In this document: piece after piece, positions 21,326 through 53,857 of the stretch
Numbering within the stretch: the first letter of the stretch is position 1
How the letters are laid out: every line of letters begins with the position of its first letter
Translations under genes and position numbers: made by a program
The notes under the pieces: generated by a model
Told to the model about the DNA's origin: nothing
Database searches by the model: none
The model's input: the letters and a program-made list of their open reading frames with translations, nothing else
Source of the DNA: Candidatus Omnitrophota bacterium
GTDB lineage: Bacteria > Omnitrophota > Gorgyraeia > Gorgyraeales > Gorgyraeaceae
DNA length: 64,000 nt
NCBI GenBank assembly: GCA_026387235.1
Contig: JAPLMD010000069.1
Location: 26,920 to 90,919 of the forward strand
Direction of reading: 5' to 3'

Positions 21326-21329
21326 AGTT

Positions 21330-22136: not shown

Positions 22137-22140
22137 TGTT

Positions 22141-24365: not shown

Positions 24366-24384
24366 TGCCTTTGGTTAAAATATT

Positions 24385-25410: not shown

Positions 25411-25444
25411 GTAACTCGACTTCGGAAGCCGGATTGGTAAAAAC

Positions 25445-27295: not shown

Positions 27296-30200
27296 ATGTC
27301 TGTGAAGCCATTATCTAGAGCAATCTCTATAACCGTGCTCATTACATTTCTTTTCACAAATATCCCATATGCTTCATCTGCCCCCAATTCTTTATTTAAG
27401 AACAAGAAAATAGACTATCAAAAGCTTTCCGATCAGAATCAAGATATTGTCCAGAAAAAGAAAGATATCCTATCTGGCGAAGATTCAAAACAAACCCAAT
27501 CACAGCAAAAACAAGCCCAGAAGATTCTGTCCAGCCATCTATCTGATATATCGCAGATTCATATTCCATCTGAGATAGGAAGGATAGTAGAGGTGCACCA
27601 GGGCACTGGGGCACCAGAGCATCAGGATAAGCTTATAGTGCACATACAAGACCTGCATACAAATCCTGAGGCAGAATATAACCTGGCAAAGATATTAGAG
27701 GTTCTATTAAATGACTATAAGATGGGTCTTGTATGTTCGGAGGGCGCTGATGGAGTTGTTGATACATCTAGTGTATCCACTTTTCCTGATTCCCAGGTAA
27801 GAGAAAAGATCTCCAAGATCTTTGTGAACGCAGGAGAACTCACAGGCGAGGAATACCTATCTATCACCAAATATCCTGATCTTCCCATCTGGGGCATTGA
27901 GAGTAAAGACATCTATTTCAGAAATATCATTGACTTCAATAAGATAATGAAATTCAACCCTGGGTCCCAAATCTTTATCTCCCAGGCTAAAAAAGCCCTG
28001 GAAGAGCTGAAAGCCAGAATCTATACAAAAGAACTGATTGAGCTGGACCAGAAAGAGGCTGATTACAAAGCCCAGAAGATAGAATCTCCTGAATATGTGA
28101 AATATCTTCTCGACTCGGCTGCTTCACAGCCTCGCTCGAAGAATATTCTCTCCAACTACAAAAATATCGGCCTATTGACTGAAACAATAGATGCGGAGAA
28201 AAAGATAGACCAGCTCAAGATAATGAACGAATCCCAAAAACTACTTTTAAACCTCCAGTCTTCCCTTAATGCCAAATCCCTCAACTCTGACATGGATTCT
28301 TTAATGGCAAAATCAAGCCTTTTCAAAGACCAGAAGATTTCACCATTCTCATTCTACAGCTACCTAAAAGACCTTGCAAATAAACACCTGAAGGACGAGT
28401 TTGGCGCAAAATACCCTAATCTGAATGGCTTTGTAGATTACCTCACTAAACTTAATTCTCTTGATTCCACAAAGCTCTTTATTGAATTAGAAGACCTGAA
28501 TTTTGAGATAAAACAAGCCCTTTCCAGAACAGATGAGCAAAAAACCCTTATCAAGGCCCTCAGAAACATAAGCTTCCTTGAAGGCTTTTTTAACCTCAAG
28601 GTCTCCAATGAAGAATTAGACTATTACCTTAATAATAAGGACTTCCATAAAGTAGCATTCTTTGAATCCTTCTTGAAACCAGCTATCAAAAAATACAATA
28701 TCAGCACCTTTATAGACTATAACCCCGATCTTATAGATTCCCATTTAACAGAGCTTGAGGATTTCTACAAGGTTGTAAAAGACCGCGATATCGCAATGGT
28801 AAATAACTCTATCTCTGAGATAGAGAAGCGCAACTCTAAAGTCAGCGCTCTTATTGCAGGAGGGTTTCATACAAAAGGCATCACTAAGCTCCTAAAAGAA
28901 AAAGGCTATTCCTATATAGTCATCTCCCCGTATTCAAAGACAGGTATAAATGAAGAGAACTATCACTATTTATTATCAGGCCAGCGTAAACCCTTAATGG
29001 AATTGGCAGAAAAGCTTAATGCTGCTGCTCTTCGCGTTATTCTTGGATTTGTAAAAGATCCGACCTTTGAAACAGAGCTTAAAAAAACTTTAGCTGCTGC
29101 TGGCATAATAGATAACCAGTTATATTCCGGTGCTAAACCAAGGATGTTATCTTTATTTGCGCTTGGGGCTGCTAAAACTCTATATCTGCGCGATAAAGCA
29201 AACTTTGATTTATCTGCGCTTCCAGCCTATTTTACATCTTCATTTTATACTGAATTAAATAAGCTTGGCTTAGATGTAGAGATAAGAGAGAGCAAATCAG
29301 GCATCCATGTGAAATGCGGGGATAATTACTTTGGCATAAATAAGGAAGATGGGGGGATAATAAAGTCTAATGCCAGCATATTTACCAGTGTATCTGATAA
29401 GAACAGAGTAATGCTGGCAAAAATAAGCGAAGAAGAGACGCTAAAAATTCCAGGGCCTCGTATTTCTGAAGGAATAACTCAGGCAGTTGCAGAAAAATGG
29501 AAAGCTAGAGCAGATATGGTTCCGGATTCGCAAATCAAAGTGATGAGAATAAAAGATTTGGAGATAGAAACTGTATTAATAACAGCTGATTCTGGAGATA
29601 TGCCTGAGGGGATACTGGCTTGGCGTTTGCGCGATAGTAAAAATAGGCTAGTGATAATTACGGAAAGGGAAGTAAAACTTGGAGACAGCTTTTCAGAAGA
29701 ACTTCTGTTTCACGAGCAATTTGAAGAGAATCTAAAACAAGAGCTTAATTATATTACTGACCGTGATCCAGAAAGGCTTAGACATACTAGGCATGCTATT
29801 GCCAGCGCAGTGGAATCTATACTATTTAGTGAGGGCGGGACCAGGCTTACGCCTTTTCATGAATATGCAATAGGCCATAGGATGAGCCTGTTGCACCTTA
29901 AAAGATTGGTCGATGAATATCAAGAACTAGGATTTTATTACAATATGATAGCAGATTTTTTTACTAGGAAAGGAATAGAATATCAAGATAAGGGCATAAC
30001 CATAGAAGCTTTACAGGCCTATGAAAGAAAATTTATAGCAAGAATAAAAGAAGAAATAAGGCACAGGACTACAGAGTCAAGAGCTCGGGCCGGCGCAAGG
30101 AGAAAGGGCAAAGCCGCTGAGGTGCCTAAGATGTATTTAGTGGGGAAAGTAGTTGTCCCTCAAGATGATGCCAGGACCCAGCAGGTGATTGAGCAGGCAA

Positions 30201-33200
30201 GGGGTCAGGAAAGGCTGGTAAGAATAGATGTATCTAAACAAGAGAGAATCACTCCGCAAGGCAGGTTTGCAGATATTTTGCGAGACGCAATCTCGTATTA
30301 TGAAAGACGGGGCGCATCTGATGAAGTAGCTGATTTGCAACAGACTGAATTTTACCTAGTTAGGCCGCAAGAGGATGATCCTAATCGCACTCTTCCAGGA
30401 TTTATTTGGTACGATTCAGATGGACATTACCTTATTGCCAAAGCAATGGAACCTAGACAAGCTTATTTTGGTTATGAGGCTATAGATATCTTAAGAGAAA
30501 AAAATCCAAGGATAGATTTTATTGCCAACATGCTTCTCCAGGTAGCACGATATGCTAAAGATCCTTATGGTAAGTGGGACCCATCTATACTTAACCATAT
30601 TTTGGCAGAGTCAGGAAACTATTTATTGGAAGATGCTCGTTTAATTAAAGAAGTGAGATTTATAATTAACCGCCTTTTTAAAGAAGAAACCTCGCCTGAA
30701 GAGAATGACCGGCTTCAGGGGCTCCTTATAGATATAAAACAACGCAAACCAGTTTTGTTCTATGTAGGGTTAGCTAATTTAGGAAGAACATACCTTCAGG
30801 GGATTTCCCCTAATAGATATCCCTGCGTCACTGCTGCAAATTTGTGTCTTGCCAGGAATTATGCTTTTATGGACCAGCATTTACAAAAGGATGCTTATGT
30901 CTCAGAAATAGACAGGACTATCACGGTTTTTAGAGATGTTTTTAATCCTACCTTAACTAGAGCGATTCCCTGGATGCTTCAGGTGTTAAAGGAGCAGCAG
31001 AATCCAGCTAATCCCAATTTAGTTAAGGGAGAAATACTTATAAAGAAAGGCGATAACTTTTTAGATCTTACTTGCGGGACAGGCATTTTTGGTTTGTTTG
31101 CAGCTTTAAACGGTGCAGAGAGTGTTTTAAGCAGCGATATTAATCCAAGTGCTGTGGCTTGCGCGAACTTTAATGCAAAAAAATTAGGAGTAGCTAAGAA
31201 AATGCAGGCAATACAAAGCGACCTTTTTAATGGTATTCCTAAAGATAGAAAATTTAACATTATCAGTTTTACCCCGCCATTCTTAGATGAGCCGCAATCT
31301 CCAGGCGTGTGGTTAGAAAAAGCTGTATATGACCCTGGATTCAGCCTTTTAACCCGTTTTTTAAATAGGGTTGGTAATTATCTAACTGATGATGGAAAGA
31401 TATTGTTTATAGGCACAGATAAGAGTCAGGGCCCAGAAGGGAAAAACAGCACAGGCCTCATGTTAGATTTAGCAAGACGGAAAGGATTTATCAGTACTAT
31501 TATACGTTCTCAAGAGTTTCATGGAGAAACCTACTCAGTTTATGAACTGACCAGAAGATCTGCTTTAGTGTCCGATAGCGAGATAGATAATCTTGTGGCA
31601 ACATCCCTAAGCTCTGACAAGGAATCAGCTAATTTTGCCATTAGAGAGTTAATTGAACAGGCTCGTTCTGCCTTTGATAGCAATCCTGAATTTTATCAAA
31701 GGCTATTCTTGCATCTCGTCCAGATTTATATTGAAGAATCCTATAACGGTTATGTATCGGAAAGGGTGATAGCTAAACGTAATGCAGGGGAGAGACCAGA
31801 CTTTTATGAAGAACAAAAGGCAGCAACCTATAATGCATCGGCAGCGCGAACAATAAACTGGTTTATTAAAGACTATTGTAGAGATGTTTTGAAATTAGAT
31901 CCTGAAGGCCAAATTGTTGAAGACTATTTTAGTTGCCTTCATATGTTGCCTATTATGAATAGAGATATGAAGAGAAGATTTAGCGAGCGTGATGGCATAG
32001 AGATAGATTCTACTATGATTGTTAATGGAAACCCAGAAGAAGTGCAGATGACCAAGGACTTTTATCGCGCGAGGTTGGGGCGTATATATGATTCTTTGAA
32101 AGTGATTGGCATAAGGGACGATCTATGGCTTGGCAATATAGTAGGTATGATGCCTTTATTTGAGGACTATTTGGCCCAGCCATCAAGAGACCAGGAAGCC
32201 AAGGGTAATAAAAAGGTTATATTGCATGTCTTGGCAGTTAATGGCGGCGCAGGAGCCAGAAATATTCTTCTTACAGCATCTTCTGATGGAAAAGGTGAAA
32301 TCATTCTTGACAATGGCCGCACAATGATGGAACAGGGCATTGAACAGGTAAAAGGCATGGTTCAGGGGTTAGTAGAAAGAAACATATATGGCGAATTTTT
32401 TATTGTTATTCCCTGCGATAACATGATACTCCCAGCCATGTATACAGCTGATGCTTACAGATCAGATAGAGGGTTTTATCTCTATGCAAGGAAGACTGAG
32501 GTTTTAAGGGCATCATTGAATGAACTTAAACATTGGGGGCCGCCGTTTGGCCAGATGTTTGCAAAAAGGGAAACGGGTATCGTCAAAGGTTTTGAAGAAA
32601 AACCAAACATATGGAAATTACTAAACAGAGTCATGATCAATGCTATTGAAGAAAGCAATGAAGAAACTTGCGGAAAAAGCATTTCGGAATTTTTATACAA
32701 CTTAGATACCAGAAGGAACAGGTATTTAGATGACTTGAAACAAAAATCCGGGGATTACGCCTTATACCTTATCGCCCTTCCTATGATTGTTCAGGAGGAG
32801 GTATGGAATTATGTCTATGAAAACGGCGAGGTGGAACCTGAAATCAGGAAGATTATCCCTACTTTTGATGAGTGGAAAAGGTTATATAGCGAAGCTAATA
32901 AACATAAGTCTCGAGTAGAAGGATTGATAAACAAAGTTTTAGATGAAGGAGGCACTGTTTCTTTTACAAATACTTTCTATTTTCTTTTATCCAGGCCTGT
33001 AGCAGAAAAGATTTATACTCTATTTTCACAGCCTACTGAAAGAGAGGACAGCGGTTCTTTCTGGGCAAGAAAGCTTCCCAAAGGCCAGACTCCAAAAATG
33101 GTAGCCGCACTTGACTGGGCAGGCTTAATCCTTACACCCATGACTGTAACCCAGGAAACATGGATGGAAGACTATGAAAAAAGAGGCGCTATGTATTTGG

Positions 33201-36166
33201 CAGAGCAGCAGGTGACTGATTTTATAAGTCAGGCTAGCTCCTTAAAAGAAGCCTATTGTCAAAAATTTAGTATAGCTTCCGAAGCTTATGAAGGCCAAGT
33301 AAATGCTTATCAAGAAAAGGCTGCTAAGGAAGGCATAGTTGAGACAGCTTTTCCTGTTCAGGATACTTATCAGAAAACTTTGAAAGCCTTTTTAGAGAAG
33401 GCACTTAAAAAAGATTTAATCAATGCTTTTGCCGCAGATATTAGATCAGCAATGATACAGGATAGTACTGTGCGAGCCAATGTTCTGGAAAGCGCTGAGA
33501 AAGTCACAACATATACTCACTATGACTGGAATAGAATCTGGGAAATGGCTCTGGACATTGACCTGGCAGCCGGCGGTTTAACATGTGTTAACTTTGGCCC
33601 GATCTGGTCTGATGTTGGTACAATTAAAGAAGCCAAGAGGCTGGCAGATTACGAGGTTTCAAAGGATAATCTTTTAGAGAGGGCTTTATATAGAGGTCTG
33701 TTTGAGCTGCCTATTACCCATGATAAAATATACAATGTTGATTCTAATAAGGGTAAGATTGTATATTCTAGCCCAAACGAATTCTTGCGTTATCGCAGTG
33801 TTATTGATGTTCCAGAAGGCGTAACTTTAATAATAGGAAATAGAGTAAGGATTGCTAATAGTTTTATTCAAATAATAGCCAAAAAAGGGGAAACAGTAAT
33901 AATACCTGATGATACTGCAATAGTAGCTAGTTATTTGCGCTGTTCAATAGGAAAGGAAGGCAAGCCAGGGTCATTTGTGTATAGACACGAGCAGAGAAGA
34001 GGTACTTTAGAATTTTCAGGAGATTTCATTACAACGATCCGGACCATTGAAGGGCCAGTGAGAGGAACCCATCCCATAGATGCAACTACTATTGCATGGA
34101 ACGACGTTCCAGTGGCAGGAACTTATACTCCCAGGATGTTGACTAGGCCATTTCCGGGTATGCCTGGACCCTTGCGAGACAAGCCTAAAGTTACTTCTGT
34201 TGTTGTTAGGGAAAAAACATATAGTTTTTATAGAAGTCGTCTCGATCGCATTATAACTACGATTTGGGAGAGAGCACAGTCACAAGAGGTCAGATTTATC
34301 CCTGAAAAGGCCATTGGAAAAATTATAGACATGGTTCAGAATGATAGAGCAAAAAGTGAAGGCAGAGGCTATATTTCAAGTTTCCTTTTTATAGGAGGCA
34401 ATGTCGGAGGTTTAGAGCCTCAAGTTTATACTCAGACATTAGAGAGATTAAGTAAGCATTATTTATATTATACTACTCCAGAAAGAAGGATTGGAGAAGA
34501 AGGGGTTTTCGGAAGGCGAGGCATGTCAGGTTTACAACATTCGTTAAGATCAATGCAACTGAATGATAAATATACTACTGAATTTCTGAATAGAGCCAAA
34601 GACCTGATTAAAGAAAGAAACATGAGAGGGCTTAAAGCATGGATAGAAGAAGCTAAACAGATAGATCCAGAAGAAGCAGGGATTAAGACTTTACGTTGTG
34701 CATTGGACTATTTAAGTAAAGAAGGGAGCCAGGTTGTACTTTACAGGATAGTTAGCAGGGCAGAAATAATAAAAGAGTATATTAGAGGCGAACATGGCGA
34801 AGAATTGGATATAGCTGACGCAGAACGAAAAGCCCGTGATTTATTAAGTGGGAAAGATCCTTATAAAGTTGATGAGCAGGATTTCTTAAGATTAATAGTA
34901 AGAGGGGAGACAGATCCAAATGACGCACATTCAGGCAGCCTGTCACATGACTTGCTTAGACACTATGAAGAAGGAGGTATTTTAAAAGGAGCTCTTGTAG
35001 AGAACGTTGCTAAATATAATATACCCAAAAAGGCCTTAATTAGTATTATGTGCGTCTTTCGCTGCCCTAGCAGGTCGGAGCTATTCTCTGATTTAGCTCA
35101 GCTGCCTCAAGAAGATATAGGCCTTTTAGAAAGTAAACTTGAGGATGCGATGTTTACGCATGACGAGATGTTATCAAGAAAGGTGAAAGAACTCCTTCAT
35201 AAGCATGGTAAGCCAATTACTGTAACCATAGATGGCTTAGCCATGACAGGCAAGAGCACGATGAGTAAAGATATAAGCAATGTCTTAGGATTTACACGTA
35301 TACCTGGAGGAGAGATAAGCAGGCTGATAACAGCTGGCCTGCTTGGAACAGGTATAAACCGTAATACTATAGAATCTACAGAGCCTGATACGATAGTTGC
35401 TGCAGTGCAGCAAACCTTGGAGGACGTGAAATATAAATTAATAGGCGGCGCTGTAACATTGTGCTATAAAGACACAGATTTGCTTAATAATCAAGATCTT
35501 TTAAGTCAACTCCGCAGCCAAGATATCAATGACAATATATCTTCACTTGTTATGAACAGTAACATTGTCAGAAATCTGCTTATAATGCATATCATGGAAT
35601 TGATAAAACAAGTCCATGATCTTGGTTTCAGCGTGGTGATAGATGGAAGATTAGCTGGAACTGAAATAGAACGGCAAGCAGATGTAAAGATTTGTTTGGA
35701 CACAAGCTATGAAGCCATGGCCAGAGCAGATGCCCGTAGAATTATTGACCAAAAAGGTAGTATGACTGCTTACATAGAGAGAACCGGCAATACTATGGCA
35801 GAGTATAGGCAAATTATAAGAAGTGGAGGGTTGCCAGGTGTGGAAAGAGCGATAATGCAGACTTATTATCAGCCAGCAGAAGAAAGAGATGCGAGTGATG
35901 TTTTAGATGTGGCTGAGTATCTATCCAGCAGAGAACAAGATGATGAGATTACTGTTATTTCATCAAGGGGCGTAGAAGATAGATTATCTATTAAGGATGT
36001 AAGAGAAACGATATTTGCAGAGATTATTAAAAAAATTAGCAATGCAGAAGATGCTGTAACTGTACTGAATTTAAGAGAGGGAACCCAGCCAGGAGTACCT
36101 TCAGATGCTGGTGTGTATCTCGAAACAGCTGTTCAAGGACTTAGAACCACAGGTCAAGGCCTATAA
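27296..36166 (+). CDS. Giant secreted multidomain protein (2956 aa). Signal peptide, paralogous N-domain, class-I SAM amino-methyltransferase domain, possible NTP-transferase-like stretch, shared C-module, cytidylate-kinase-like P-loop domain.
   Basis: Sec-type signal peptide MSVKPLSRAISITVLITFLFTNIPYASSA|P. N-domain (~27383-29020) ~80-85% identical to the gene 3 N-domain. MTase motif I DLTCGTG (31063-31083) and motif IV FTPPF (31268-31282). LAVNGGAGARN…FIVIPCDNM (32215-32430) weakly nucleotidyltransferase-like. Cmk-like ITVTIDGLAMTGKST (P-loop) and VVIDGRLAGTE…KICLDTSYEAMARADARR (35213-35745). Confidence 0.85.
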   Translation: MSVKPLSRAISITVLITFLFTNIPYASSAPNSLFKNKKIDYQKLSDQNQDIVQKKKDILSGEDSKQTQSQQKQAQKILSSHLSDISQIHIPSEIGRIVEVHQGTGAPEHQDKLIVHIQDLHTNPEAEYNLAKILEVLLNDYKMGLVCSEGADGVVDTSSVSTFPDSQVREKISKIFVNAGELTGEEYLSITKYPDLPIWGIESKDIYFRNIIDFNKIMKFNPGSQIFISQAKKALEELKARIYTKELIELDQKEADYKAQKIESPEYVKYLLDSAASQPRSKNILSNYKNIGLLTETIDAEKKIDQLKIMNESQKLLLNLQSSLNAKSLNSDMDSLMAKSSLFKDQKISPFSFYSYLKDLANKHLKDEFGAKYPNLNGFVDYLTKLNSLDSTKLFIELEDLNFEIKQALSRTDEQKTLIKALRNISFLEGFFNLKVSNEELDYYLNNKDFHKVAFFESFLKPAIKKYNISTFIDYNPDLIDSHLTELEDFYKVVKDRDIAMVNNSISEIEKRNSKVSALIAGGFHTKGITKLLKEKGYSYIVISPYSKTGINEENYHYLLSGQRKPLMELAEKLNAAALRVILGFVKDPTFETELKKTLAAAGIIDNQLYSGAKPRMLSLFALGAAKTLYLRDKANFDLSALPAYFTSSFYTELNKLGLDVEIRESKSGIHVKCGDNYFGINKEDGGIIKSNASIFTSVSDKNRVMLAKISEEETLKIPGPRISEGITQAVAEKWKARADMVPDSQIKVMRIKDLEIETVLITADSGDMPEGILAWRLRDSKNRLVIITEREVKLGDSFSEELLFHEQFEENLKQELNYITDRDPERLRHTRHAIASAVESILFSEGGTRLTPFHEYAIGHRMSLLHLKRLVDEYQELGFYYNMIADFFTRKGIEYQDKGITIEALQAYERKFIARIKEEIRHRTTESRARAGARRKGKAAEVPKMYLVGKVVVPQDDARTQQVIEQARGQERLVRIDVSKQERITPQGRFADILRDAISYYERRGASDEVADLQQTEFYLVRPQEDDPNRTLPGFIWYDSDGHYLIAKAMEPRQAYFGYEAIDILREKNPRIDFIANMLLQVARYAKDPYGKWDPSILNHILAESGNYLLEDARLIKEVRFIINRLFKEETSPEENDRLQGLLIDIKQRKPVLFYVGLANLGRTYLQGISPNRYPCVTAANLCLARNYAFMDQHLQKDAYVSEIDRTITVFRDVFNPTLTRAIPWMLQVLKEQQNPANPNLVKGEILIKKGDNFLDLTCGTGIFGLFAALNGAESVLSSDINPSAVACANFNAKKLGVAKKMQAIQSDLFNGIPKDRKFNIISFTPPFLDEPQSPGVWLEKAVYDPGFSLLTRFLNRVGNYLTDDGKILFIGTDKSQGPEGKNSTGLMLDLARRKGFISTIIRSQEFHGETYSVYELTRRSALVSDSEIDNLVATSLSSDKESANFAIRELIEQARSAFDSNPEFYQRLFLHLVQIYIEESYNGYVSERVIAKRNAGERPDFYEEQKAATYNASAARTINWFIKDYCRDVLKLDPEGQIVEDYFSCLHMLPIMNRDMKRRFSERDGIEIDSTMIVNGNPEEVQMTKDFYRARLGRIYDSLKVIGIRDDLWLGNIVGMMPLFEDYLAQPSRDQEAKGNKKVILHVLAVNGGAGARNILLTASSDGKGEIILDNGRTMMEQGIEQVKGMVQGLVERNIYGEFFIVIPCDNMILPAMYTADAYRSDRGFYLYARKTEVLRASLNELKHWGPPFGQMFAKRETGIVKGFEEKPNIWKLLNRVMINAIEESNEETCGKSISEFLYNLDTRRNRYLDDLKQKSGDYALYLIALPMIVQEEVWNYVYENGEVEPEIRKIIPTFDEWKRLYSEANKHKSRVEGLINKVLDEGGTVSFTNTFYFLLSRPVAEKIYTLFSQPTEREDSGSFWARKLPKGQTPKMVAALDWAGLILTPMTVTQETWMEDYEKRGAMYLAEQQVTDFISQASSLKEAYCQKFSIASEAYEGQVNAYQEKAAKEGIVETAFPVQDTYQKTLKAFLEKALKKDLINAFAADIRSAMIQDSTVRANVLESAEKVTTYTHYDWNRIWEMALDIDLAAGGLTCVNFGPIWSDVGTIKEAKRLADYEVSKDNLLERALYRGLFELPITHDKIYNVDSNKGKIVYSSPNEFLRYRSVIDVPEGVTLIIGNRVRIANSFIQIIAKKGETVIIPDDTAIVASYLRCSIGKEGKPGSFVYRHEQRRGTLEFSGDFITTIRTIEGPVRGTHPIDATTIAWNDVPVAGTYTPRMLTRPFPGMPGPLRDKPKVTSVVVREKTYSFYRSRLDRIITTIWERAQSQEVRFIPEKAIGKIIDMVQNDRAKSEGRGYISSFLFIGGNVGGLEPQVYTQTLERLSKHYLYYTTPERRIGEEGVFGRRGMSGLQHSLRSMQLNDKYTTEFLNRAKDLIKERNMRGLKAWIEEAKQIDPEEAGIKTLRCALDYLSKEGSQVVLYRIVSRAEIIKEYIRGEHGEELDIADAERKARDLLSGKDPYKVDEQDFLRLIVRGETDPNDAHSGSLSHDLLRHYEEGGILKGALVENVAKYNIPKKALISIMCVFRCPSRSELFSDLAQLPQEDIGLLESKLEDAMFTHDEMLSRKVKELLHKHGKPITVTIDGLAMTGKSTMSKDISNVLGFTRIPGGEISRLITAGLLGTGINRNTIESTEPDTIVAAVQQTLEDVKYKLIGGAVTLCYKDTDLLNNQDLLSQLRSQDINDNISSLVMNSNIVRNLLIMHIMELIKQVHDLGFSVVIDGRLAGTEIERQADVKICLDTSYEAMARADARRIIDQKGSMTAYIERTGNTMAEYRQIIRSGGLPGVERAIMQTYYQPAEERDASDVLDVAEYLSSREQDDEITVISSRGVEDRLSIKDVRETIFAEIIKKISNAEDAVTVLNLREGTQPGVPSDAGVYLETAVQGLRTTGQGL

Positions 36167-36341: not shown

Positions 36342-36396
36342 GTACACAATAAAAATATAGAATTTTTGTTTGACAGAAAAGCGGAAGAGGGGAGCC

Positions 36397-38130
36397 ATGT
36401 TTTTTAAATCATTTAAGAAAATCACTCCAATTATTGCCCTGGGCATATTTATAGCTGTTAATACTATACATGCGGCGTCTGATTCCAAATCCATATTCAA
36501 AAATAAAAAAATTGACTACCAAAAACTGAGCACTGAAGAAGAAGAAGCCCTTCGAAGAAAAAAAGCTATGCGCAGCGAAGAGGCTGTCAATAAACCTAAA
36601 GTCCAGAAAAAGGAAACCCAGAAGATAGTTTTTTCGCGTCTTTCTGATATATCGTTCATCCACATCCCCCAGGAAACAGGGAAAATAGCGGAAATATACC
36701 AGAGCCCTAACCAGGATAATTCCAGGCTCGTAGTGCATATTCAGGACTTACATACTAATCCGGAAGCAACGCTTAACCTGGCCAGGATACTGGAAATATT
36801 GTTTAAAGACTATAATCTGGGGTTAGTGTGTTCAGAAGGGGCAGAGGGCCCGGTTGATACTTCCAGCGTTGCCAGTTTTCCTGACCCAGAAGTCAGGGAA
36901 AAAGTAGCCAAGCTTTTTGTTGATTCAGGAGAGCTCACAGGAGAGGAGTATTTATCCATAACAAAATATCCGGATCTACCCATATGGGGCATTGAAAATA
37001 AAGATATCTATTTTAAAAATATCGAGGAATTTAACAGCATAATGAAGTTTAATCATGATTCCCAGGCTTTTATCTCCCAGACTAAAAAGGCGTTAGAAGA
37101 ATTAAAACCAAAAATTTATTCGAAAGAGATGCTGGAGATAGACCAGAAAGAAGACGATTACGAACAGCAGACAATAGAAACAACCGATTACTTAAAGTAC
37201 CTGTCTTTATATCTTCGGAAACTGAACATCCCGGCAGACAGCTATAAAAATATAACGCTATTAAATGAGACTATAATACAGGAATCCAGGATTGACCAGC
37301 AAAAGGTCAAGCAGGAATCCCAGGACATGCTTTTGAATTTACAGTCAGCTATTGCCAAGAAGCCCAATAGCACGGATATGGATAGTTTAATGGCTAAGGC
37401 CACCCTGTTTAAGGACCAGAAAATATCGCCTTTTTCATTCTATAATTATCTAAAAGAGCTGGCAGGTAAAGAGTTAGGGGGCCAGTTGTCAAAATATCCA
37501 AATGTAATGGGCTTTGTGGATTATCTTGCAAAAGTCAATTCGCTTGATTCCGCAAAACTTTTTACGGAGATAGAGAATCTGACCTACGAAATAAAACAAA
37601 AGCTCGCTGTAAATAATGAACAGAAAGAGCTTGTCCTTGCCCTGCGCAATATAAAATTTCTTGAGACCTTTTTTAATCTTGAAATTTCCAACGAGGACCT
37701 GGAGTATTATTTAAATAACAGGGATTTTCACAAAGTAGCGTTCTTTAAGGATGTTTTAGCGGGTTTGAGGGCCAAGGCAGGGCTTTCGACCCAGGCAGAT
37801 TATATAGATTTTAATCCTGATTTAATAGATTCTCACCTAGGGGAGATAGAAGATTTCTATGAAACCGCAAAATCCAGGGATCTGGCTATGTTTAATAACG
37901 CTGTCTCAGAAATAGAAAAGCGCAACGTAAGAGTGGCTGCTCTGGTAACAGGCGGATTTCATACAAAAGGCCTGACCAGGCTTTTAAAGGATAAAGGCTA
38001 TTCCTATATAGTTATATCTCCGTATGCAAAAACCGGCATAGACGAAGAGAATTATCGTTTTCTGTTATCAGGTAAGCGCAAGCCAATAGAAGAAATAATA
38101 AAACAATTTGAGGAAACTAAGCAAAAATAA
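36397..38130 (+). CDS. Secreted stand-alone copy of the ~560-aa N-domain (paralog of genes 1 and 3 N-termini)
   Basis: Signal peptide MFFKSFKKITPIIALGIFIAVNTIHAAS|D followed by the SIFKNKKIDYQKLS motif. Colinear with the gene 1 and gene 3 N-domains throughout (VHIQDLHTNPEA…CSEGAEG…GGFHTKG…LLSGKRKP). The ORF-track start at 36370 is a TTG that forms part of a TTGACA box; the ATG at 36397 is preferred. Confidence 0.8.
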   Translation: MFFKSFKKITPIIALGIFIAVNTIHAASDSKSIFKNKKIDYQKLSTEEEEALRRKKAMRSEEAVNKPKVQKKETQKIVFSRLSDISFIHIPQETGKIAEIYQSPNQDNSRLVVHIQDLHTNPEATLNLARILEILFKDYNLGLVCSEGAEGPVDTSSVASFPDPEVREKVAKLFVDSGELTGEEYLSITKYPDLPIWGIENKDIYFKNIEEFNSIMKFNHDSQAFISQTKKALEELKPKIYSKEMLEIDQKEDDYEQQTIETTDYLKYLSLYLRKLNIPADSYKNITLLNETIIQESRIDQQKVKQESQDMLLNLQSAIAKKPNSTDMDSLMAKATLFKDQKISPFSFYNYLKELAGKELGGQLSKYPNVMGFVDYLAKVNSLDSAKLFTEIENLTYEIKQKLAVNNEQKELVLALRNIKFLETFFNLEISNEDLEYYLNNRDFHKVAFFKDVLAGLRAKAGLSTQADYIDFNPDLIDSHLGEIEDFYETAKSRDLAMFNNAVSEIEKRNVRVAALVTGGFHTKGLTRLLKDKGYSYIVISPYAKTGIDEENYRFLLSGKRKPIEEIIKQFEETKQK

Positions 38131-38240: not shown

Positions 38241-41200
38241 ATGACTTTTAATACTATGAAGAAGGTTGCTTCTATAGTTACATTTATTAGTTTTATAGCC
38301 ACTAATAGCATATATGCCGCGCCTGAGTCAAAGTCTGTATTCAAGAACAAGAAGGTGGACTATCAGAAGATTAATGACCAGAATAATGGCGTTATTCAGA
38401 GGAAAAAGGCCATTCTTAACGGAGAAGACGCAAACCAGGTTGAGTCCCAGCAAAAAGAGGCTCAGAAGATACTCTCATCCCATCTTTCTGATATATCACT
38501 TATCCATATTCCTGCAGAGTTGGGAAGAATTACCGAAGTCTACCAGAACCCAGATGCTGAAAACTCCAGGCTAATTGTCCATATCCAGGATCTTCATACG
38601 AACCCTGAGGCAGAGTATAACCTTGCCAAGATACTTGAGCTTTTATTGAATGATTATAAAATGGGCCTGGTGTGCTCAGAAGGTGCTGATGGCGCAGTGG
38701 ATACTTCAAGTATTTCAAGTTTCCCGGATTATGCAACAAGGGAAAAGGTCTCAAAGATATTTGTCAATGCAGGCGAGCTTACAGGAGAGGAATACCTCTC
38801 AATAACAAAATACCCTGCTCTACCTATCTGGGGAATTGAAAATAAGGAAATATATTTCAAAAATATAATTGATTTTAATAAGATAATGAAATTTAATCCC
38901 CAGTCACAGGTTTTTATATCACAGGCAAAAAAGGCGCTTGAAGAACTTAAAAACAAGCTTTATACAAAAGAGCTTTTGGAATTAGACCAGAAGGGATTAG
39001 ATTATAAGGCGCAGAAACTTGAGTCAGCAGATTATATAACATACCTTACAGGATATGTCCAAAAACTTAATATCCCAACGCTCAAATATGAGAATGTTTC
39101 GCTATTGAATGAAACTATTGATATGGAGAAAAGAATAGGCCAGCTGAAGATAATGAACGAATTGCAGAATCTATTACTGAATCTGCAGGCGGCGTTTTTA
39201 TCCAAATCCATGAAAGGAGAATCTGATTCTTTAAACGCCAACGCCCAGCTTTTCAAAGACCAGAAGATATCGCCGTTTTCATTTTATAGTTACCTGAAAG
39301 ACCTTGCGAATAAGCACCTTAAAGACGAATTTTCTGCAAAATATACAGCTATAAATAGCTTTGTAACCTACCTCACAAAAGTAAATTCATTAGATTCCAC
39401 AAAGCTATTCATAGAATTGGAAGACCTTAATTTTGAAATAAAAGAAGCGCTCTGTAGAACAGAGGAACAAAAAACGCTTGTGAAGGCGCTCCGCAATATA
39501 GATTTCCTTGAAGGGTTTTTTAATCTGAAGGTCTCAAATGAAGAATTAGATTATTATCTTGAAAATAAAGAATCCCATAAGGTGGCGTGGTTCAAATCTG
39601 CAATAACGGGCATAACAGGCAAAATAGGCCTAACGGGCCAAACGAACTACATAGATTATAATTCGGCTTTAATAGACCCGCATCTAACTGAACTTGAAGA
39701 ATTTTACAAGGTTGTAAAAGAGCGCGATGTGGCAATGGTGGATAATTCATTGTTTGAGATTGAGAAACGCAGATCAAAGGTAAGTGCATTAATAGCAGGC
39801 GGATTCCATACAAAAGGCATAACAAGGCTTTTAAAGGATAAGGGGTATTCTTATATAGTAGTATCTCCGTATTCAAAGACAGATATGGATGAGCAAAATT
39901 ACCATTTCTTATTGTCAGGAAAAAGAAAACCCCTTGTAGAATTATTGAAACAATTAGATTTAGGTGGAATTGTAAAAAGATACATCACTTCTACCGGCCT
40001 TCGAGTAAATATGGGTTGTGATACAGATATGGATGCGGCTTTTGGACGTCAAGTAATTCCTGAACTTGCAAAAATATGGGATTTTGAACCAGAGGATTTG
40101 CATCGATGGAATTTACCTCCAAGAGTGGTAGCTTGTTTAGTATTTCAAAGCGCAGCAGCAGGAAGAACTGACTTTAAAGGATGGCCGTCAATAGTTGGGT
40201 TAGAGCTAAATGATATAGGTGTGTTAAAGCTTACTTCTCGTGAAGGGTATATTTACTATGTTGAAGTTACCGCTGATAATAAAGTAAAAGAAGCAAAGCC
40301 AGATGCTTTTAATAATGGCACAGTAGTTGTAAATATACCATCAGCAGGCACAGGGCAAATAATCGCAAAGGAGCTACAAAAGGTAGATTTAAGTGCTGTA
40401 GAACCGGAAGCAGCCGTAGGTTCTCTTTTTAACCTTTTGGATTTACTTATACGCTTACGTGATGGTCAGGGAATCACAGAAATTTCAACTGGGAAATTAA
40501 AAACGGAGCGCACTGCAGTTGGTGTCAGAATGGTTGACAGAGAAATAAACGCAGGCCGTTTGCTCGGCATATTAGAGGACAAAGAAACATCAAGGGGAGT
40601 TGTTAAATTCACAGAGCCATTTAAAGATATTACCCGTGCAGAATTAGTAGAAATAAATACAGAAATAGCAAAAATCCTGCCTAAAGGTTTAGGCAGAGGG
40701 ACATTAGATCAGTTAGATCAAGTTAAACTAGAGCAAGTAAGAAAGATAGTAGAAACTTTTAAAAAAGTGGACGGATTACGAACACAACAGGGTAGAGAAG
40801 CGGAGTTTTTGGTTCAAAATGTGCAGAAGTTGTCAAGAGTTGATGGAGGTATAGTTGCAGGTATTGGATTACAGGATATTCATGGCCGGGTGTTTAAGCT
40901 AAATGGCCAGTTTTTTAACGATGATGGTAGCTATACCGAGGAGTTGCAGAAGTTTATGGATACTCTCTCTGATAATTCGGTCCAAGAGATGATACATGCA
41001 GGGATTATGTATTATGATATTCGCTCTAAATACTGGAAAGATAACCCTGCATTTACAGTGGCATTTGCATTTGCCTTTGCAAAGAAGTTGCAGGAAATAG
41101 AGGGCAGGCAAGATGGTATAGTGCTTCATATAGGCGTCGATGCATATCATAAGCATTTTGAAACAGCTCAGGTTTTTGCTGATGCAATATTGAGGACAGG

Positions 41201-42854
41201 GATATGCGATAATGGAGGAGGTATTTATTACTGGGGCGTTATAAATGGCGGTGATACGCGAAATTATGGTCAGCTTTATCATGCAATGAATAATGGAAAA
41301 GGCGGAAACTGGGTTTATTTTACCATGAGCCATGTTCGCGATGATTTTATAGGAGCTAAGTTAGGCAGAGGCGCTAAAGTATACTGCGGATCTGAAATTC
41401 GGCATTGCGAAGACGTAACAAGCGGCACATTATATGATGCTATAGTTGAAAAAGATTTTACTCCAGTAAAACGTAATATTCCTGTTGGGAATATTGTAAC
41501 TGTGAGTAATGTTATAAAAAATAATATTGAGGTTGCAGCAGATATGATAAGAGCAACTTCTGATAGCAGTGATATACCAACAAATGAGTTATTGAAAAGT
41601 GAAAAAGCAAAATTTTATGTTCTTATGGGTGGCAGTCCAATGGCTAAGAATCTAGTGGATATGCTCAAGGCTCTTGGTGCTGATATAGAGGTTGAAAGTG
41701 GAAGCGTGGATAAGAATTTTAATACAGCCAATATTATAGACCCTAATGAGCTTAATAATCCTAATGCGCATCCGCTTCAAGTTGCTATAAATAAAAGATT
41801 GAGAGAGATAGCGAAAGAGACAGGCAGGACGGTTTTAGTAGTAGACCCTGATGCTGATAGAGGATCGATTGTTGCTATAAATGAAGAAGGAGAAGCAATA
41901 GCTTTATCAGGTTCGAAGTTATTACTTCTGGCTATGGAACCACTGGCGCGCAGTTATAAAGCTAAAGGACTTCCTCCTCCTACTGTAATTTGCGACATGA
42001 GAACAGGGGTAAGCGCTAAAGATTTAGCAAAGGTGCTTAATGAAAGAGGATTTCCAATCAAGGTTGTTCCACATGAGGCTGGTTATCCATTTTTTATGAG
42101 AGGAATGGCGAGCTTGCCAGCTGATCTGGCTGTAGAAAATACTACGCATGCATTTATGAACCCTATGACAAACCCGAAATGGGGCGCGCCAGAAGAATAT
42201 AGAATGCCAAATGGTGAGGGTTATCAAGGTGGTGATAATGCCGCTCTTTTCCTTATTTATTTGGCAGGCTGTATGGTCCATCAGTGGGAAGGTAGAACCC
42301 CTGCCCAGCAATTAGAATGGCTTGAACAAGAATATGGCATTAAAAAGACTATAGATGATGAACGGAAACCCAAGATGCCAGTGAAGGATGATAAGTACAA
42401 ATATATTATTGCAGGTAGAATGAAAATGTTGGCTAAACAATATTGTACTGATAAAACTAGGTTTTTAATTAATTTCGATGATCCTAAGGTTAGTTTGGTA
42501 AGCGGTGTCCATCTGACAAATGTTAAAACAGGCGCCATGGTTTTAGTAAGATTTTCTAATACAGGTTCAACTTTTACGATTTCTGGTGAAGCCTACTATA
42601 GAAAAGATTTAGGCGAAGGGCGTGAGAGAGAAGATTTGAATGAAATGTTGGGCTTGGGGTATTGGATTATGATTACCGCAGTGAATCAATTGCACGCCGA
42701 GGGCAATGTTTTTGATTTTGATCCCAAGGATGCTGCTGAATTGGAAAATCAACCAATTGTAGCTGAGATGAATCAAATGCTTACAGACACTCAACACGAA
42801 GGTTTGCAGCCTGCTATTACAAAGATATCTAGAGACATAGGTTCAGGTATATGA
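38241..42854 (+). CDS. Giant secreted protein (1537 aa): signal peptide, N-domain, unknown middle region, C-terminal alpha-D-phosphohexomutase (phosphoglucomutase)-like domain
   Basis: Signal peptide MTFNTMKKVASIVTFISFIATNSIYAA|P. Phosphohexomutase signatures: active-site-Ser-like YFTMSHVRDD (~41321), metal loop VDPDADRGSIV (41844-41861), phosphate-binding loop RFSNTGSTFTISGEAYY (42548-42600), comparable to RLSGTGSxGATIRLY of PGM. Confidence 0.8.
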   Translation: MTFNTMKKVASIVTFISFIATNSIYAAPESKSVFKNKKVDYQKINDQNNGVIQRKKAILNGEDANQVESQQKEAQKILSSHLSDISLIHIPAELGRITEVYQNPDAENSRLIVHIQDLHTNPEAEYNLAKILELLLNDYKMGLVCSEGADGAVDTSSISSFPDYATREKVSKIFVNAGELTGEEYLSITKYPALPIWGIENKEIYFKNIIDFNKIMKFNPQSQVFISQAKKALEELKNKLYTKELLELDQKGLDYKAQKLESADYITYLTGYVQKLNIPTLKYENVSLLNETIDMEKRIGQLKIMNELQNLLLNLQAAFLSKSMKGESDSLNANAQLFKDQKISPFSFYSYLKDLANKHLKDEFSAKYTAINSFVTYLTKVNSLDSTKLFIELEDLNFEIKEALCRTEEQKTLVKALRNIDFLEGFFNLKVSNEELDYYLENKESHKVAWFKSAITGITGKIGLTGQTNYIDYNSALIDPHLTELEEFYKVVKERDVAMVDNSLFEIEKRRSKVSALIAGGFHTKGITRLLKDKGYSYIVVSPYSKTDMDEQNYHFLLSGKRKPLVELLKQLDLGGIVKRYITSTGLRVNMGCDTDMDAAFGRQVIPELAKIWDFEPEDLHRWNLPPRVVACLVFQSAAAGRTDFKGWPSIVGLELNDIGVLKLTSREGYIYYVEVTADNKVKEAKPDAFNNGTVVVNIPSAGTGQIIAKELQKVDLSAVEPEAAVGSLFNLLDLLIRLRDGQGITEISTGKLKTERTAVGVRMVDREINAGRLLGILEDKETSRGVVKFTEPFKDITRAELVEINTEIAKILPKGLGRGTLDQLDQVKLEQVRKIVETFKKVDGLRTQQGREAEFLVQNVQKLSRVDGGIVAGIGLQDIHGRVFKLNGQFFNDDGSYTEELQKFMDTLSDNSVQEMIHAGIMYYDIRSKYWKDNPAFTVAFAFAFAKKLQEIEGRQDGIVLHIGVDAYHKHFETAQVFADAILRTGICDNGGGIYYWGVINGGDTRNYGQLYHAMNNGKGGNWVYFTMSHVRDDFIGAKLGRGAKVYCGSEIRHCEDVTSGTLYDAIVEKDFTPVKRNIPVGNIVTVSNVIKNNIEVAADMIRATSDSSDIPTNELLKSEKAKFYVLMGGSPMAKNLVDMLKALGADIEVESGSVDKNFNTANIIDPNELNNPNAHPLQVAINKRLREIAKETGRTVLVVDPDADRGSIVAINEEGEAIALSGSKLLLLAMEPLARSYKAKGLPPPTVICDMRTGVSAKDLAKVLNERGFPIKVVPHEAGYPFFMRGMASLPADLAVENTTHAFMNPMTNPKWGAPEEYRMPNGEGYQGGDNAALFLIYLAGCMVHQWEGRTPAQQLEWLEQEYGIKKTIDDERKPKMPVKDDKYKYIIAGRMKMLAKQYCTDKTRFLINFDDPKVSLVSGVHLTNVKTGAMVLVRFSNTGSTFTISGEAYYRKDLGEGREREDLNEMLGLGYWIMITAVNQLHAEGNVFDFDPKDAAELENQPIVAEMNQMLTDTQHEGLQPAITKISRDIGSGI

Positions 42855-50622: not shown

Positions 50623-53254
50623 AAAGGTTTACAGGGCAATATCTTTCTTAAGTATTGCAGCGTTTATTGTTACTAATACTTGTTATGCATTTTCAGGTTC
50701 AGGCGCATTAAGGCCGGCTATGGTAATGGGAAAATTGATACAACCATCTGCCGTTAAATTCCAGCCGCTCGGGATGCTTACCGATGATGGCAGATTGAAT
50801 ATGCGCAGGCTTGAAAAATTGCTTGGTGCCACTGCGACTGAAATAATAAGAAAAGACGCGGGCAATAAAGACATAACAGTAAATTGTATTTTTATAGGCA
50901 GTGCCAGGTATCTTTCTGACAACGAAGGCTTTGTTCCGTTGGGAAGGATAGGAGATATAGATTATGCATTAGTGGCTACTAAACTAGAAGATGCAGCATA
51001 TGACTATTCTAAACTGTGGTATAAGACATTGATGGAAGTAATAAAACTGTTATCGCCAAGTGAAGATAAAAGATATGAAGTATTACATCGGGCATTATCT
51101 GGTGCAAAACCAATTGTACTATTTCAAGATGAATTTGATTTTACCAAAGGCATGTCGGAAGTTTTAAAAAGAATTACAGGTGAAACCGAAGAACTGTCGC
51201 TAACACCAGACAATGCTGAAAAAATAGCAAAACGATATATTCAATTGGCATATTATTTAGGCTCTTCAAAATTACATGAAAGGCTCATTGGGGATTTTCT
51301 AGCAGTAGACAAGGACGATAAAGATGGTTTAGTCAAATTGGCGCAGAAATTTCGAGAAGATGGTGAGATACAAAGGCTTGTGGATTTTCTTAATTCTTCC
51401 AAGGATGAAATATTATCAGCTGCAATAGAGAATAGATTAAGGGGGATTCCGGGCTATGAATGGCTTAATAGTAGCATAGACCGAACTGGTTATCAGAGAA
51501 GGTTAGAAGAAGCAGGGTTTTCTTTTGCCAGAAAAGAAGCTCAGAAAGAACCTAAGAGGGTAATAGTTTTTGACTTAGACGGCACTGTTCTCGATACTGA
51601 AGAAATCACTTTGGCGGTTTTTATCCGCCATATAACGCGGATAGTAAATGGCATAGATGATATTAATTGGTCTCCTAACCCTAAACAGGTTGAGGAAGCA
51701 CAAAATATCTACAAACAATGTGTGGCTATCTCGACTGTACCGGCAAGAAAAATCTTTGAAACAGCAGAAGGGATTGCTAAAGATAGAGGTTTTTCTGTCA
51801 AATCTGTGAAAGAATATATAGAAGCTTTTGATAGAGATAAAAGAGAGACGATAATTGCGGAAATAAAAAAATCCCCAACCAAGCTTATCTTTCCAGACGC
51901 CTTGATTTTGCTGAATTTTCTTAAAAAATATACGGATGTAGAACTCTATCTTTGTTCCGGGGCAGCGCCTGTCTATACACAAGAGGCTTGTAAGGAGGCA
52001 GGCCTTGTAGCTATATTCGGCAATAATATATTCGGTTCTCGTAGGGATGAATCGCCAGAAATGCCTAAAGATAAAAAGGATTTAATCCGGAGATTGAAAA
52101 CAGAAAAAAATTTATCTAACGCAGAAATAATGCTTATTGATGATTTAAAAGGGTTTATAGTTCGTATAAAAGAAGGAAATGATGCAATAGCTGTTGCAAT
52201 AGATAGAGGAAATACAAAACTACAGGAATTTATAGATTCAGGCGCTGATTTTATTGCAAACAGCCTGGCCAATCCTGAAGGTTTCTGCAAAGTAGTAAAT
52301 ATTCCAATATCCTTACAAGCGAAAAAAGCGGCTATCGTTAGTAATATAAAGGGTATGATTGAAAGAGACAGGTTAGAATATGAAGAAACAGGCCATATAT
52401 CTTTACTTCTTCTTAAAGGAGGAGAGGAAGAAGGGGGTTGCCAGGCTGAACTTAGGTCTGAGACGGTGGAGCGGTTAAAAAAACATTGGTTGCTTGTTTC
52501 TTGTCCGATTAGAAAAATTGGTGAAGCAGGAGCTTTAGTCAAATGGGGTATGTCTGGACTGCAATATCCTTTAAAAATTATGGAAACAAAGCCTTTAATA
52601 TTTACCAAAGAGTTTATAGATATTGCAAGAGGAATGATTATGAATAGAGATTTTACAGGGCTTAAAGCATGGATAGCGGAAGCAGAAGGTTTAGATCCTA
52701 CCGACGTAGGCCATAAAGCCCTGTCCCGCGCTTTGGACTACTTAAGCAAAGAAGTACAGCAGATGTTGCTTTATAGAATAAGCAGCAGAGATGCGGCAAT
52801 GCTGGAATTTGTTAGGGGTGAAAATGGCGAAGAATTGCCGCTAGTCCAAGCAGAACAAAAAGCCCGGAATTTATTAAATGGAAGGGACCCTTATAAAGTT
52901 GATGAACAGGACTTTTTTAAAGCAATTGTGGTAGGGGCTACGAATCCGCTTCATGCGCATCCTGGCAGTTTAAGGTATAGCGTGGGTGAACGCTACAAGG
53001 AAGGTGGTAGTTTAAGGCCAGCTATTGAAAGGTCCAGAGCCGAATTTGGCATAGAAGATATTGAGCTTCTAACCAGTATTATGAACGCTTTTCATTCTCC
53101 CAGCAGTAATGAAATGCCTGATGAGTTAAACCAAATGACAACCCAGGAGCTGGAAATTTTAGAGAGGGGAACAGCTCTATTGCAAGAACAAAGGATTTTA
53201 GGTGTTTTTGGGCCTTTAGAGACGGTTTCAGAAGAAGCAAGATTTGGAATGTAG
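50612..53254 (+). CDS. Secreted multidomain protein (~880 aa): signal peptide, unknown region, HAD-superfamily (DxDGT) domain, C-module shared with giant gene 1
   Basis: Signal peptide MQSKKVYRAISFLSIAAFIVTNTCYAFS. HAD motif I VIVFDLDGTVLDTEE (51569-51610). C-module (~52500-53254) alignable with gene 1 ~34480-35200: …RKIGEAGALVKWGMSGLQ…GLKAWIAEAEGLDP…ALDYLSKE…GENGEELPL…KARNLLNGRDPYKVDEQDF…. The ORF-track start at 50558 overlaps gene 5 by 65 nt; the in-frame ATG at 50612 gives an 11-nt overlap. Confidence 0.75.
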   Translation: MQSKKVYRAISFLSIAAFIVTNTCYAFSGSGALRPAMVMGKLIQPSAVKFQPLGMLTDDGRLNMRRLEKLLGATATEIIRKDAGNKDITVNCIFIGSARYLSDNEGFVPLGRIGDIDYALVATKLEDAAYDYSKLWYKTLMEVIKLLSPSEDKRYEVLHRALSGAKPIVLFQDEFDFTKGMSEVLKRITGETEELSLTPDNAEKIAKRYIQLAYYLGSSKLHERLIGDFLAVDKDDKDGLVKLAQKFREDGEIQRLVDFLNSSKDEILSAAIENRLRGIPGYEWLNSSIDRTGYQRRLEEAGFSFARKEAQKEPKRVIVFDLDGTVLDTEEITLAVFIRHITRIVNGIDDINWSPNPKQVEEAQNIYKQCVAISTVPARKIFETAEGIAKDRGFSVKSVKEYIEAFDRDKRETIIAEIKKSPTKLIFPDALILLNFLKKYTDVELYLCSGAAPVYTQEACKEAGLVAIFGNNIFGSRRDESPEMPKDKKDLIRRLKTEKNLSNAEIMLIDDLKGFIVRIKEGNDAIAVAIDRGNTKLQEFIDSGADFIANSLANPEGFCKVVNIPISLQAKKAAIVSNIKGMIERDRLEYEETGHISLLLLKGGEEEGGCQAELRSETVERLKKHWLLVSCPIRKIGEAGALVKWGMSGLQYPLKIMETKPLIFTKEFIDIARGMIMNRDFTGLKAWIAEAEGLDPTDVGHKALSRALDYLSKEVQQMLLYRISSRDAAMLEFVRGENGEELPLVQAEQKARNLLNGRDPYKVDEQDFFKAIVVGATNPLHAHPGSLRYSVGERYKEGGSLRPAIERSRAEFGIEDIELLTSIMNAFHSPSSNEMPDELNQMTTQELEILERGTALLQEQRILGVFGPLETVSEEARFGM

Positions 53255-53340: not shown

Positions 53341-53407
53341 ATATCTACTCTTATGAAAGGGGGTAGGTTAGTTGAAGTGGGTGCAGTATGCCCGCTTTTT
53401 TTGTTTT

Positions 53408-53857
53408 ATGGTAGATAAAATCAAGGAAATAATAGAGCCGATTTTACAAGGAGAGCAGGTTGAGCTCGTAGAGATTATTTTCAGGAAAGAAGCTGGGAGA
53501 CAGGTTTTACGGCTGTTGGTTGATAAAGATGACGGGATTCAACTTTCAGATTGCATAGAACTAAACGAGAAAATATCTTGGGTTTTAGATGCGGCAGATA
53601 TTATACAAGAAAGTTATGTTATTGAAGTGGATTCACCTGGGATTGACAGGCCGTTTAAAACAAAAAGGGATTATGAGAGGGCTATGGGGAGGTTAGTAAG
53701 GGTAACATTAAACGAAAAGATATTGGACAAAAAGGAATATATTGCTAGATTAGGAGAAGTATCTGACGCAGGCGTTAAGATAGACGTGAAGAAAAAAGGT
53801 ATTATAGAGATACCTTTTGAGAAAATCGTGCGGGCAAGAGAAGAAGTTGAATTATAA
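53408..53857 (+). CDS. rimP: Ribosome maturation factor RimP
   Basis: MVDKIKEIIEPILQGEQVELVEIIF…VDSPGIDRP aligns with the E. coli RimP N-terminus. An upstream in-frame TTG (53372), preceded by AAAGGGGG, is an alternative start. Confidence 0.85.
   Translation: MVDKIKEIIEPILQGEQVELVEIIFRKEAGRQVLRLLVDKDDGIQLSDCIELNEKISWVLDAADIIQESYVIEVDSPGIDRPFKTKRDYERAMGRLVRVTLNEKILDKKEYIARLGEVSDAGVKIDVKKKGIIEIPFEKIVRAREEVEL

Follow-up and report, generated by a model that had tools for sequence, protein, structure and literature searches.

Nucleoside diphosphate kinases (NDK; Ndk/NME1-4, PF00334, EC 2.7.4.6) are homo-oligomers, dimer-based tetramers or hexamers, in which Lys12 (human numbering) and Tyr52 contact the phosphates. 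In large proteins of Omnitrophota few domains are recognisable (PMC10066038), and PGI, FBPase, PGM/PMM, HAD and methyltransferase-type domains have been listed for the long ones (bioRxiv 10.1101/2023.11.21.568195, 10.64898/2026.06.07.730766). An NDK or NDK-like domain has 0 occurrences in these three papers, and our literature searches gave nothing relevant on NDK-like domains of Omnitrophota proteins or on fusions of NDK with cytidylate kinase (Cmk). Here we analyzed a 64-kb window of a Candidatus Omnitrophota genome (contig JAPLMD010000069.1, the whole stretch from 26,920 to 90,919), and all coordinates below are positions in this window. It contains six large genes on the same (+) strand, g1 to g6, and two of them, g1 and g6, share a module of about 280 residues. 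Taken together, our results make it probable that the module is a domain of the NDK superfamily, the g6 copy being an NDK-like enzyme and the g1 copy a pseudo-NDK.

The module shared by g1 and g6 and its relatives

BLASTP between g1 and g6 gave a single strong local alignment of aa 2340-2612 of g1 with aa 594-869 of g6 (nt 34313-35131 and 52337-53164), with 124 of 276 positions identical (45%), 66% positives, 3 gaps and an E value of 2e-66. The Smith-Waterman score of the pair was 583, while 500 shuffles gave 36 ± 6 with a maximum of 67 (z = 92). The identity is thus far better than shuffled background, and the claim of the initial annotation that the two segments align over a long stretch stands; every conserved motif listed there was also found in both translations. 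It was right that a segment is shared, but its starts at 34480 and 52500 were about 150-170 nt late. The g1 copy is located at 34334..35170 (+, aa 2347-2625; BLASTP and family alignment) and is degenerate, and the g6 copy, with all family-invariant residues present, is located at 52358..53197 (+, aa 601-880; family profile). The first strand, which ends in the conserved (L)KGG motif, lies in the stretch left out by the later starts.

The flanks of the two copies are unrelated, as had been proposed. Gene g1 (27296-36166, +, 2956 aa; open reading frame (ORF) list, translation and Pfam) encodes a leader, a domain of about 580 aa, a methyltransferase (aa ~1250-1330), an unannotated middle, the NDK-like module and a cytidylate kinase. 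This Cmk (35222..35758, +, aa 2643-2821) passed the gathering threshold of PF02224 with 61.1 bits against a cutoff of 26 (E 1.6e-16). Gene g6 (50558-53254, +, 898 aa counted from TTG; ORF list and Pfam) encodes a leader, an unannotated region, a HAD hydrolase (Pfam; aa 334-529, nt 51557-52144, +) and the C-terminal NDK-like module, and its stop codon follows 18 codons past the module end. Upstream of the module, PDB sequence searches with g1 aa 1480-2340 and g6 aa 19-600 gave no matches.

There was no third copy in the window by tblastn. At the DNA level the two copies were alignable in the central ~265 nt alone, with 70.6% identity, and no flanking repeats around them were detected in the blastn comparison. 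Because the DNA likeness is limited to these central 265 nt, the copies are old paralogs and not a recent duplication.

Neither single copy had any match in Pfam at E <= 10, in NCBIfam or among PDB sequences, and no module match was found by Pfam in ten family members at E <= 1. Among 5.8 billion proteins searched with a word index, P0001 was the single relative; this protein of 363 aa has an N-terminal leader and the module and nothing more. It is encoded on contig L001 (sample label Hain_H43) directly after an ortholog of g1 which has its own internal copy, and is followed by a g2/g3-like gene. When 1.84 billion representatives were searched exhaustively with a profile hidden Markov model (HMM), 56 proteins matched at E <= 1e-3, 31 of them at E <= 1e-10. 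Among six NCBI-named relatives, five were labelled Candidatus Omnitrophota/Omnitrophica and the sixth candidate division KSB1, with an Omnitrophica cluster-mate; none of the six was annotated as such a kinase. A search of GTDB species representatives with a 3-sequence alignment gave no relative, and the module was absent from 80 loci anchored on NusA, including those of the two closest Omnitrophota metagenome-assembled genomes (MAGs).

The relatives range from standalone proteins of about 280 aa to domains within proteins of up to 7,252 aa. The same module was standalone, terminal or internal across proteins, in dozens of architectures, which agrees with the earlier suggestion of a mobile module and domain shuffling. 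In the g6-type gene the leader and the C-terminal module stay the same and the part between them varies; the protein has 898 aa, including HAD, in the window, 622 aa in P0002 (L085:1629-3497) and 363 aa in P0001 (L001:3484-4575). Two full NDK-like modules were seen within one protein in P0008 (2249 aa) and P0020 (5136 aa). P0032 and P0038 (~2300 aa each) had 3-6 short repeat matches to the GTNP..G.R segment alone, which suggests a repeat built of the Kpn-loop motif or else spurious motif matches.

Predicted fold, conserved residues and two kinds of copy

The family alignment shows the NDK signatures G-x-T-N-P-x-x-A-x-P-G-(T/S)-(I/L)-R and N-x-x-H. A 26-sequence module alignment (A2) was used for AlphaFold2, hhalign and the PDB profile search. 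AlphaFold2 with A2 gave a model of the g6 module with pLDDT 95.9 and pTM 0.92; a model from three sequences alone (pLDDT 40.8) was set aside. With the A2-based model, all the top 50 Foldseek matches in PDB were NDKs, with probability up to 1.00, and the model contains the ferredoxin-like beta-alpha-beta-beta-alpha-beta core, the alphaA/alpha2 hairpin and the Kpn loop of the NDK superfamily. The A2 profile gave 33 weak matches among PDB sequences (best E 0.017); 30 of these are NDKs, each matched at the Kpn-loop motif.

Alignment of A2 with an NDK profile by hhalign had a probability of 90.6% and an E value of 1.3e-6, and it paired T795, R806, N843, H846 and E856 of g6 with the NDK Thr, Arg, Asn, catalytic His and the Glu partnering this His, respectively. 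The NDK profile consisted of four sequences and was validated in PDB, where it found 112 NDK sequences at E <= 1e-30. In the reciprocal search of the six-frame translated window, the best match of the NDK HMM, a weak one, was the g6 motif, and no canonical ndk was found within the 64 kb. As judged from the predicted model, the module is a domain of the NDK superfamily, and its family is an unannotated, divergent branch which Pfam and NCBIfam miss. Since PF00334 and NCBIfam are not matched, we file it as a new family of the superfamily and not as a member of PF00334.

The module is about 130 residues longer than NDK. The excess appears to be made up of three mainly helical insertions: one at about module residues 64-116, in the alphaA/alpha2 hairpin, a second at about 141-182, separating strand 3 from helix 3, and a third at about 207-240, within the Kpn loop. 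This placement was drawn from predicted secondary structure and alignments; hhalign in global or low-mact mode gave no trustworthy alignment of the N-terminal half of the module.

In about 50 members K20, W63, Y128, Q184, G193, R206, N243, H246, E252 and E256 are near-invariant (module numbering; the g6 residue is the module number + 600). The Kpn-loop Thr is present in most members, with the R and E near-invariant. The full set of near-invariant residues is kept in g6, P0001 and P0002, and the exceptions are P0027 and the g1 clade, which comprises g1, its ortholog on L001 and P0003. In g6, the motif LLLLKGG (52403..52423, +; predicted strand 14-20) forms strand 1 with the invariant Lys620, the proposed counterpart of NDK Lys12, which is co-linear with IMIKPD of NDK in a non-significant HMMER segment. 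The segment GATNPLHAHPGSLR (52934..52975, +) with Thr795 and Arg806 corresponds to the NDK Kpn-loop motif G(A/E)TNP..A.PGTIR by the PDB profile search, hhalign and the reciprocal HMM. In NAFHSPSSNEMPDELNQ (53084..53134, +), Asn843 and His846 of strand 4 are aligned to the NDK Asn and catalytic (phospho)His, and Glu856 to its Glu, by hhalign and family invariance. HMMER agreed with hhalign on Thr795, Arg806 and Glu856.

The g1 copy is different. It has K to I (aa 2366), W to R, R to S (aa 2550), N to C (aa 2586), H to R (aa 2589) and E to D substitutions, and the Kpn-loop Thr is kept; the motif CVFRCPS (35051..35071, +) stands in place of NxxH(S/A)P(S), so the N-x-x-H of strand 4 is missing. 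The substitution pattern of the L001 ortholog is identical to that of g1, and P0003 has the H to R change too.

Neighbour-joining placed the g1 type (g1, L001 g1 and P0003) and the g6 type (g6, P0001 and P0002) as sister groups, and H to R was common to the whole g1 clade. P0003 is a positional ortholog of g1, located directly after proS in contig L084, with 47% identity over 2006 aa; it keeps the g1 order of methyltransferase followed by module-Cmk (Cmk domain E 1.2e-14). It means that the duplication and the loss of His are old, and that the His-less copy has been attached to Cmk ever since.

Between the g6 module and P0001, differences at codon positions 1/2/3 were 9.1/7.6/21.6% with dN/dS of 0.23, which shows purifying selection on the g6-type copy. 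Compared with L001 (L001:3-3377), the final 1125 codons of g1 differed by 7.8/7.6/8.4% at the three positions with dN/dS of 0.7-0.85, while both reading frames are open over several kb; the dS of the g6-type module was four times higher. The g1 pattern possibly reflects a large protein that evolves near-neutrally or is diversifying, or differing histories of adjacent genes.

Proposed function and alternative explanations

Pfam partners among 31 module carriers were cytidylate kinase in five, PRK/uridine kinase in four, CYTH in four and DHH in four, together with HAD, APH, dNMP kinase, PEP-utilising and HPr domains. P0016 is arranged as APH-Cmk(299-498)-module(499-737), P0031 as Cmk(17-224)-module(244-530), and Cmk-module was weakly detected in P0013. 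P0017 is arranged as module(2-266)-uridine kinase(299-477)-CYTH and P0025 as CYTH-module, whereas g1 and P0003 have module-Cmk, so fusion is found in both orders. The gene of the stand-alone P0012 lies between that of a DHH protein and a convergent uridine kinase (PRK)+CYTH gene. Repeated fusion with enzymes that make nucleoside monophosphate (NMP) and diphosphate (NDP) is the pattern expected of an enzyme making nucleoside triphosphate (NTP).

We propose that the g6-type copy, and likewise the stand-alone P0001, would work by a ping-pong mechanism as judged from their residues: the gamma-phosphate of an NTP would first be transferred to His846 and from there to an NDP, and Lys620, Thr795, Arg806, Asn843 and Glu856 would assist this phosphotransfer. 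Such a step would complete the series from uridine kinase through CMP/UMP kinase to NDP kinase, and the (pyrimidine) NTPs might be supplied to the sugar-phosphate/sugar-nucleotide domains of the neighbouring large proteins. We infer the NDP to NTP phosphotransfer of the g6 type from the predicted fold, the catalytic set and the partners. The g1 copy lost the His, Lys, Arg and Asn, and its orthologs hold it directly N-terminal to Cmk, so the most likely reading is a pseudo-NDK without catalytic activity, whose role would be structural or in binding nucleotides or a partner.

Several observations weigh against this proposal. The NDK fold is that of a predicted structure, and the PF00334 threshold was not reached, with no match even at E <= 10. 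The match of Lys620 relies on the non-significant HMMER segment and the strand-1 position. A Trp is apparently at the position of NDK Tyr52, Pro/Ala stands two residues past the His where NDK has Ser (H-G-S-D), and the base-stacking hairpin region is replaced by a helical insertion of about 50 aa. In human NDK this hairpin stacks the base via Phe60. With the Ser and hairpin, and apparently the Tyr, changed, the substrate specificity and even the acceptor could differ from classical NDK. The N-terminal leaders would imply that a nucleotide kinase works outside the cytoplasm, and no NTP donors are expected there. Finally, the near-neutral dN/dS of g1 means that its module copy could simply be decaying.

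It is unlikely, if less so than the other alternatives, that the module is a phosphohistidine enzyme of NDK fold other than an NDP kinase, whose insertions redirect the phosphate to a sugar phosphate, protein His/Ser or polyphosphate, or else that it senses nucleotides and regulates the enzymes next to it. In favour of this, the base-binding alphaA/alpha2 hairpin has given way to the largest insertion, and the Kpn loop contains another; the invariant W63, Y128, Q184 and E252 have no NDK counterpart and point to an added or changed function; and HAD, DHH, APH, PEP-utilizer and HPr are also among the partners. However, the phosphate-handling residues of NDK are retained, and the partners found most often and directly next to the module, on either side of it, are NMP and nucleoside kinases; a relay from NMP via NDP to NTP fits this pattern best.

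The initial annotation regarded the function as unknown and guessed an interaction or assembly module tying the large proteins together. As a non-enzymatic module, for example through NDK-like oligomerisation of g1 with g6, this seems improbable to us: the catalytic Lys/Arg/Asn/His/Glu are near-invariant in about 50 members with purifying selection on the g6 type, which speaks for catalysis as the main function, and stand-alone versions of about 280 aa exist for which no giant partner gene is visible on the short contigs. The NDK fold and the nucleotide-kinase partners also speak against that guess. Besides, the Kpn loop, which is the oligomer interface in NDKs, carries an insertion, and this may change the assembly of the module. 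A non-catalytic and perhaps associative role is plausible only for the g1 copy.

A combined arrangement, in which the His-less g1 and the intact g6 form an NDK-type hetero-oligomer which docks several leader-bearing multi-enzyme proteins into a membrane-associated or extracytoplasmic metabolon, is speculative and rather doubtful. Under this reading, and if the leaders do export the proteins, the possibly host-dependent Omnitrophota could phosphorylate and process host-derived nucleotides and sugar phosphates outside the cytoplasm. If it were true, the NDK-like module would be both enzyme and assembly hub, and the early guess would be partly vindicated.

Chance or compositional likeness, a mobile-element copy or a recent duplication of the DNA has nothing but the repeated occurrence in its favour and is refuted by the alignment (E 2e-66, z = 92 against shuffles), by the DNA identity of 70.6% over 265 nt only without flanking repeats, and by the tree, in which the copies belong to separate clades, each with orthologs in other metagenomes.

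The locus, its leaders and comparison with known systems

Between g1 and g6 the ORF list has g2 (36370-38130, +), g3 (38241-42854, +), g4 (42851-48571, +) and g5 (48646-50622, +). Pfam detected PGI and two FBPase domains in g4, and PGM/PMM in g3 weakly, under the curated cutoff. An alternative start of g6 is the ATG at 50612 (MQSKKVY...), just ahead of the hydrophobic leader; g5 and g6 overlap by 65 nt with the TTG at 50558 and by 11 nt with this ATG. Gene g5 is without leader and without Pfam match at E <= 0.01; an ortholog with 64% identity lies ahead of rimP in L002. By eye, its motifs GIGGQHTPFQG and SSKSGSTDET seem to resemble the sugar-isomerase (SIS) motifs of phosphoglucose isomerase.

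Downstream of g6 are rimP, nusA and infB (53372-57222), and the NusA is 91% identical to those of two Candidatus Omnitrophota MAGs (JAHJQM010000048 and MNVP01000072). Upstream of g1 (20630-27181) is a row like uppS-cdsA-dxr-rseP-ispG-proS, whose Pfam domains were read on the counterparts in contig L084. The window genes at 24385-25410 and 25445-27181 matched L084 directly (70% and 78% identity), and the four remaining genes of the row were matched by ORF length and order alone. In more distant Omnitrophota (L006, L008, L009 and L010) the proS-like gene directly abuts rimP, so the large-gene block of about 26 kb sits at a variable proS/rimP site. In the closest MAGs (L002 and L003), other large multi-enzyme genes fill this site, which is a hot spot of gene-content variation. 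A phage origin of the window, suggested by the gene order on one strand, was ruled out by the synteny of rimP-nusA-infB and uppS-cdsA-dxr-rseP-ispG-proS with Omnitrophota MAGs.

All the large proteins of the cluster except g5 (g1-g4 and g6) have at the N-terminus basic residues, a hydrophobic stretch of about 15 aa and a conserved motif, either (F)TNxxYA(A/S)P(D/E)xxS(I/L/V)FKNKK or ALR(P/V)P. The leader sites are at 27296-27400, 36370-36520, 38241-38340, 42851-43010 and 50612-50720 in the window, and at L001:3484-3600, L002:1085 and 7358, and L003:5277. On other large proteins of relatives, ALRPP follows similar leaders; by eye alone, one such protein looks phosphofructokinase-like and another radical-SAM-like. 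From its composition the leader looks like a Sec signal or a type-II anchor, and would be a lineage-specific export or anchoring signal on normally cytoplasmic enzymes. The same puzzle of export versus NTP-dependent chemistry is present in the two surveys of long Omnitrophota proteins (bioRxiv 10.1101/2023.11.21.568195, 10.64898/2026.06.07.730766).

The N-terminal domain of about 580 aa, without Pfam match, is common to g1, g2 and g3 (27296-29040, 36370-38130 and 38241-40000), and g2 is essentially that domain. In L084 (16018-17860) the g1 ortholog P0003 is without it and the next gene has it, which makes it a second shuffled module.

With the present analysis, a conserved unannotated piece of large Omnitrophota proteins receives a predicted fold and an activity that can be tested, and the NDK superfamily gains a strongly remodelled branch of about 56 clusters at 50% identity. 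If these organisms lack canonical ndk, the family would be their NTP-regenerating enzyme, and reconstructions with "ndk absent" would be wrong. The g1 and g6 copies might also serve as a natural inactive/active paralog pair for studying how NDK domains become pseudoenzymes. That nucleotide and sugar-phosphate enzymes have leaders of the export type raises the question of where this chemistry is located.

Compared with the long proteins of Omnitrophota described as "multi-enzyme metabolic cluster" proteins or Archaeovorins, the window proteins share the kinds of domains, behind N-terminal leaders, but with 0.6-3 thousand aa they are far under the "giant" thresholds of those papers. The module sits in the part of the proteins which Pfam-based catalogues left unannotated. 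Multi-domain NDK proteins are also known from eukaryotes, where the ciliary Group II NME/axonemal proteins (NME5, NME7-9, RSP23/NDK5 and FAP67) have thioredoxin, DPY-30 and IQ domains as partners; the module family differs from them in being bacterial, with its own insertions and nucleotide-kinase partners. The NDK of Pyrobaculum aerophilum (PDB 1xqi), a recognisable PF00334-type enzyme, is longer than usual with 182 residues, against about 280 in the module. From canonical NDK the module differs by its length and three insertions, by an apparent Trp for Tyr, by H-x-P/A for H-G-S-D and by the extra invariant Y128, Q184 and E252; its activity is putative, and unlike canonical NDK it usually lies within multi-domain proteins with an N-terminal leader.

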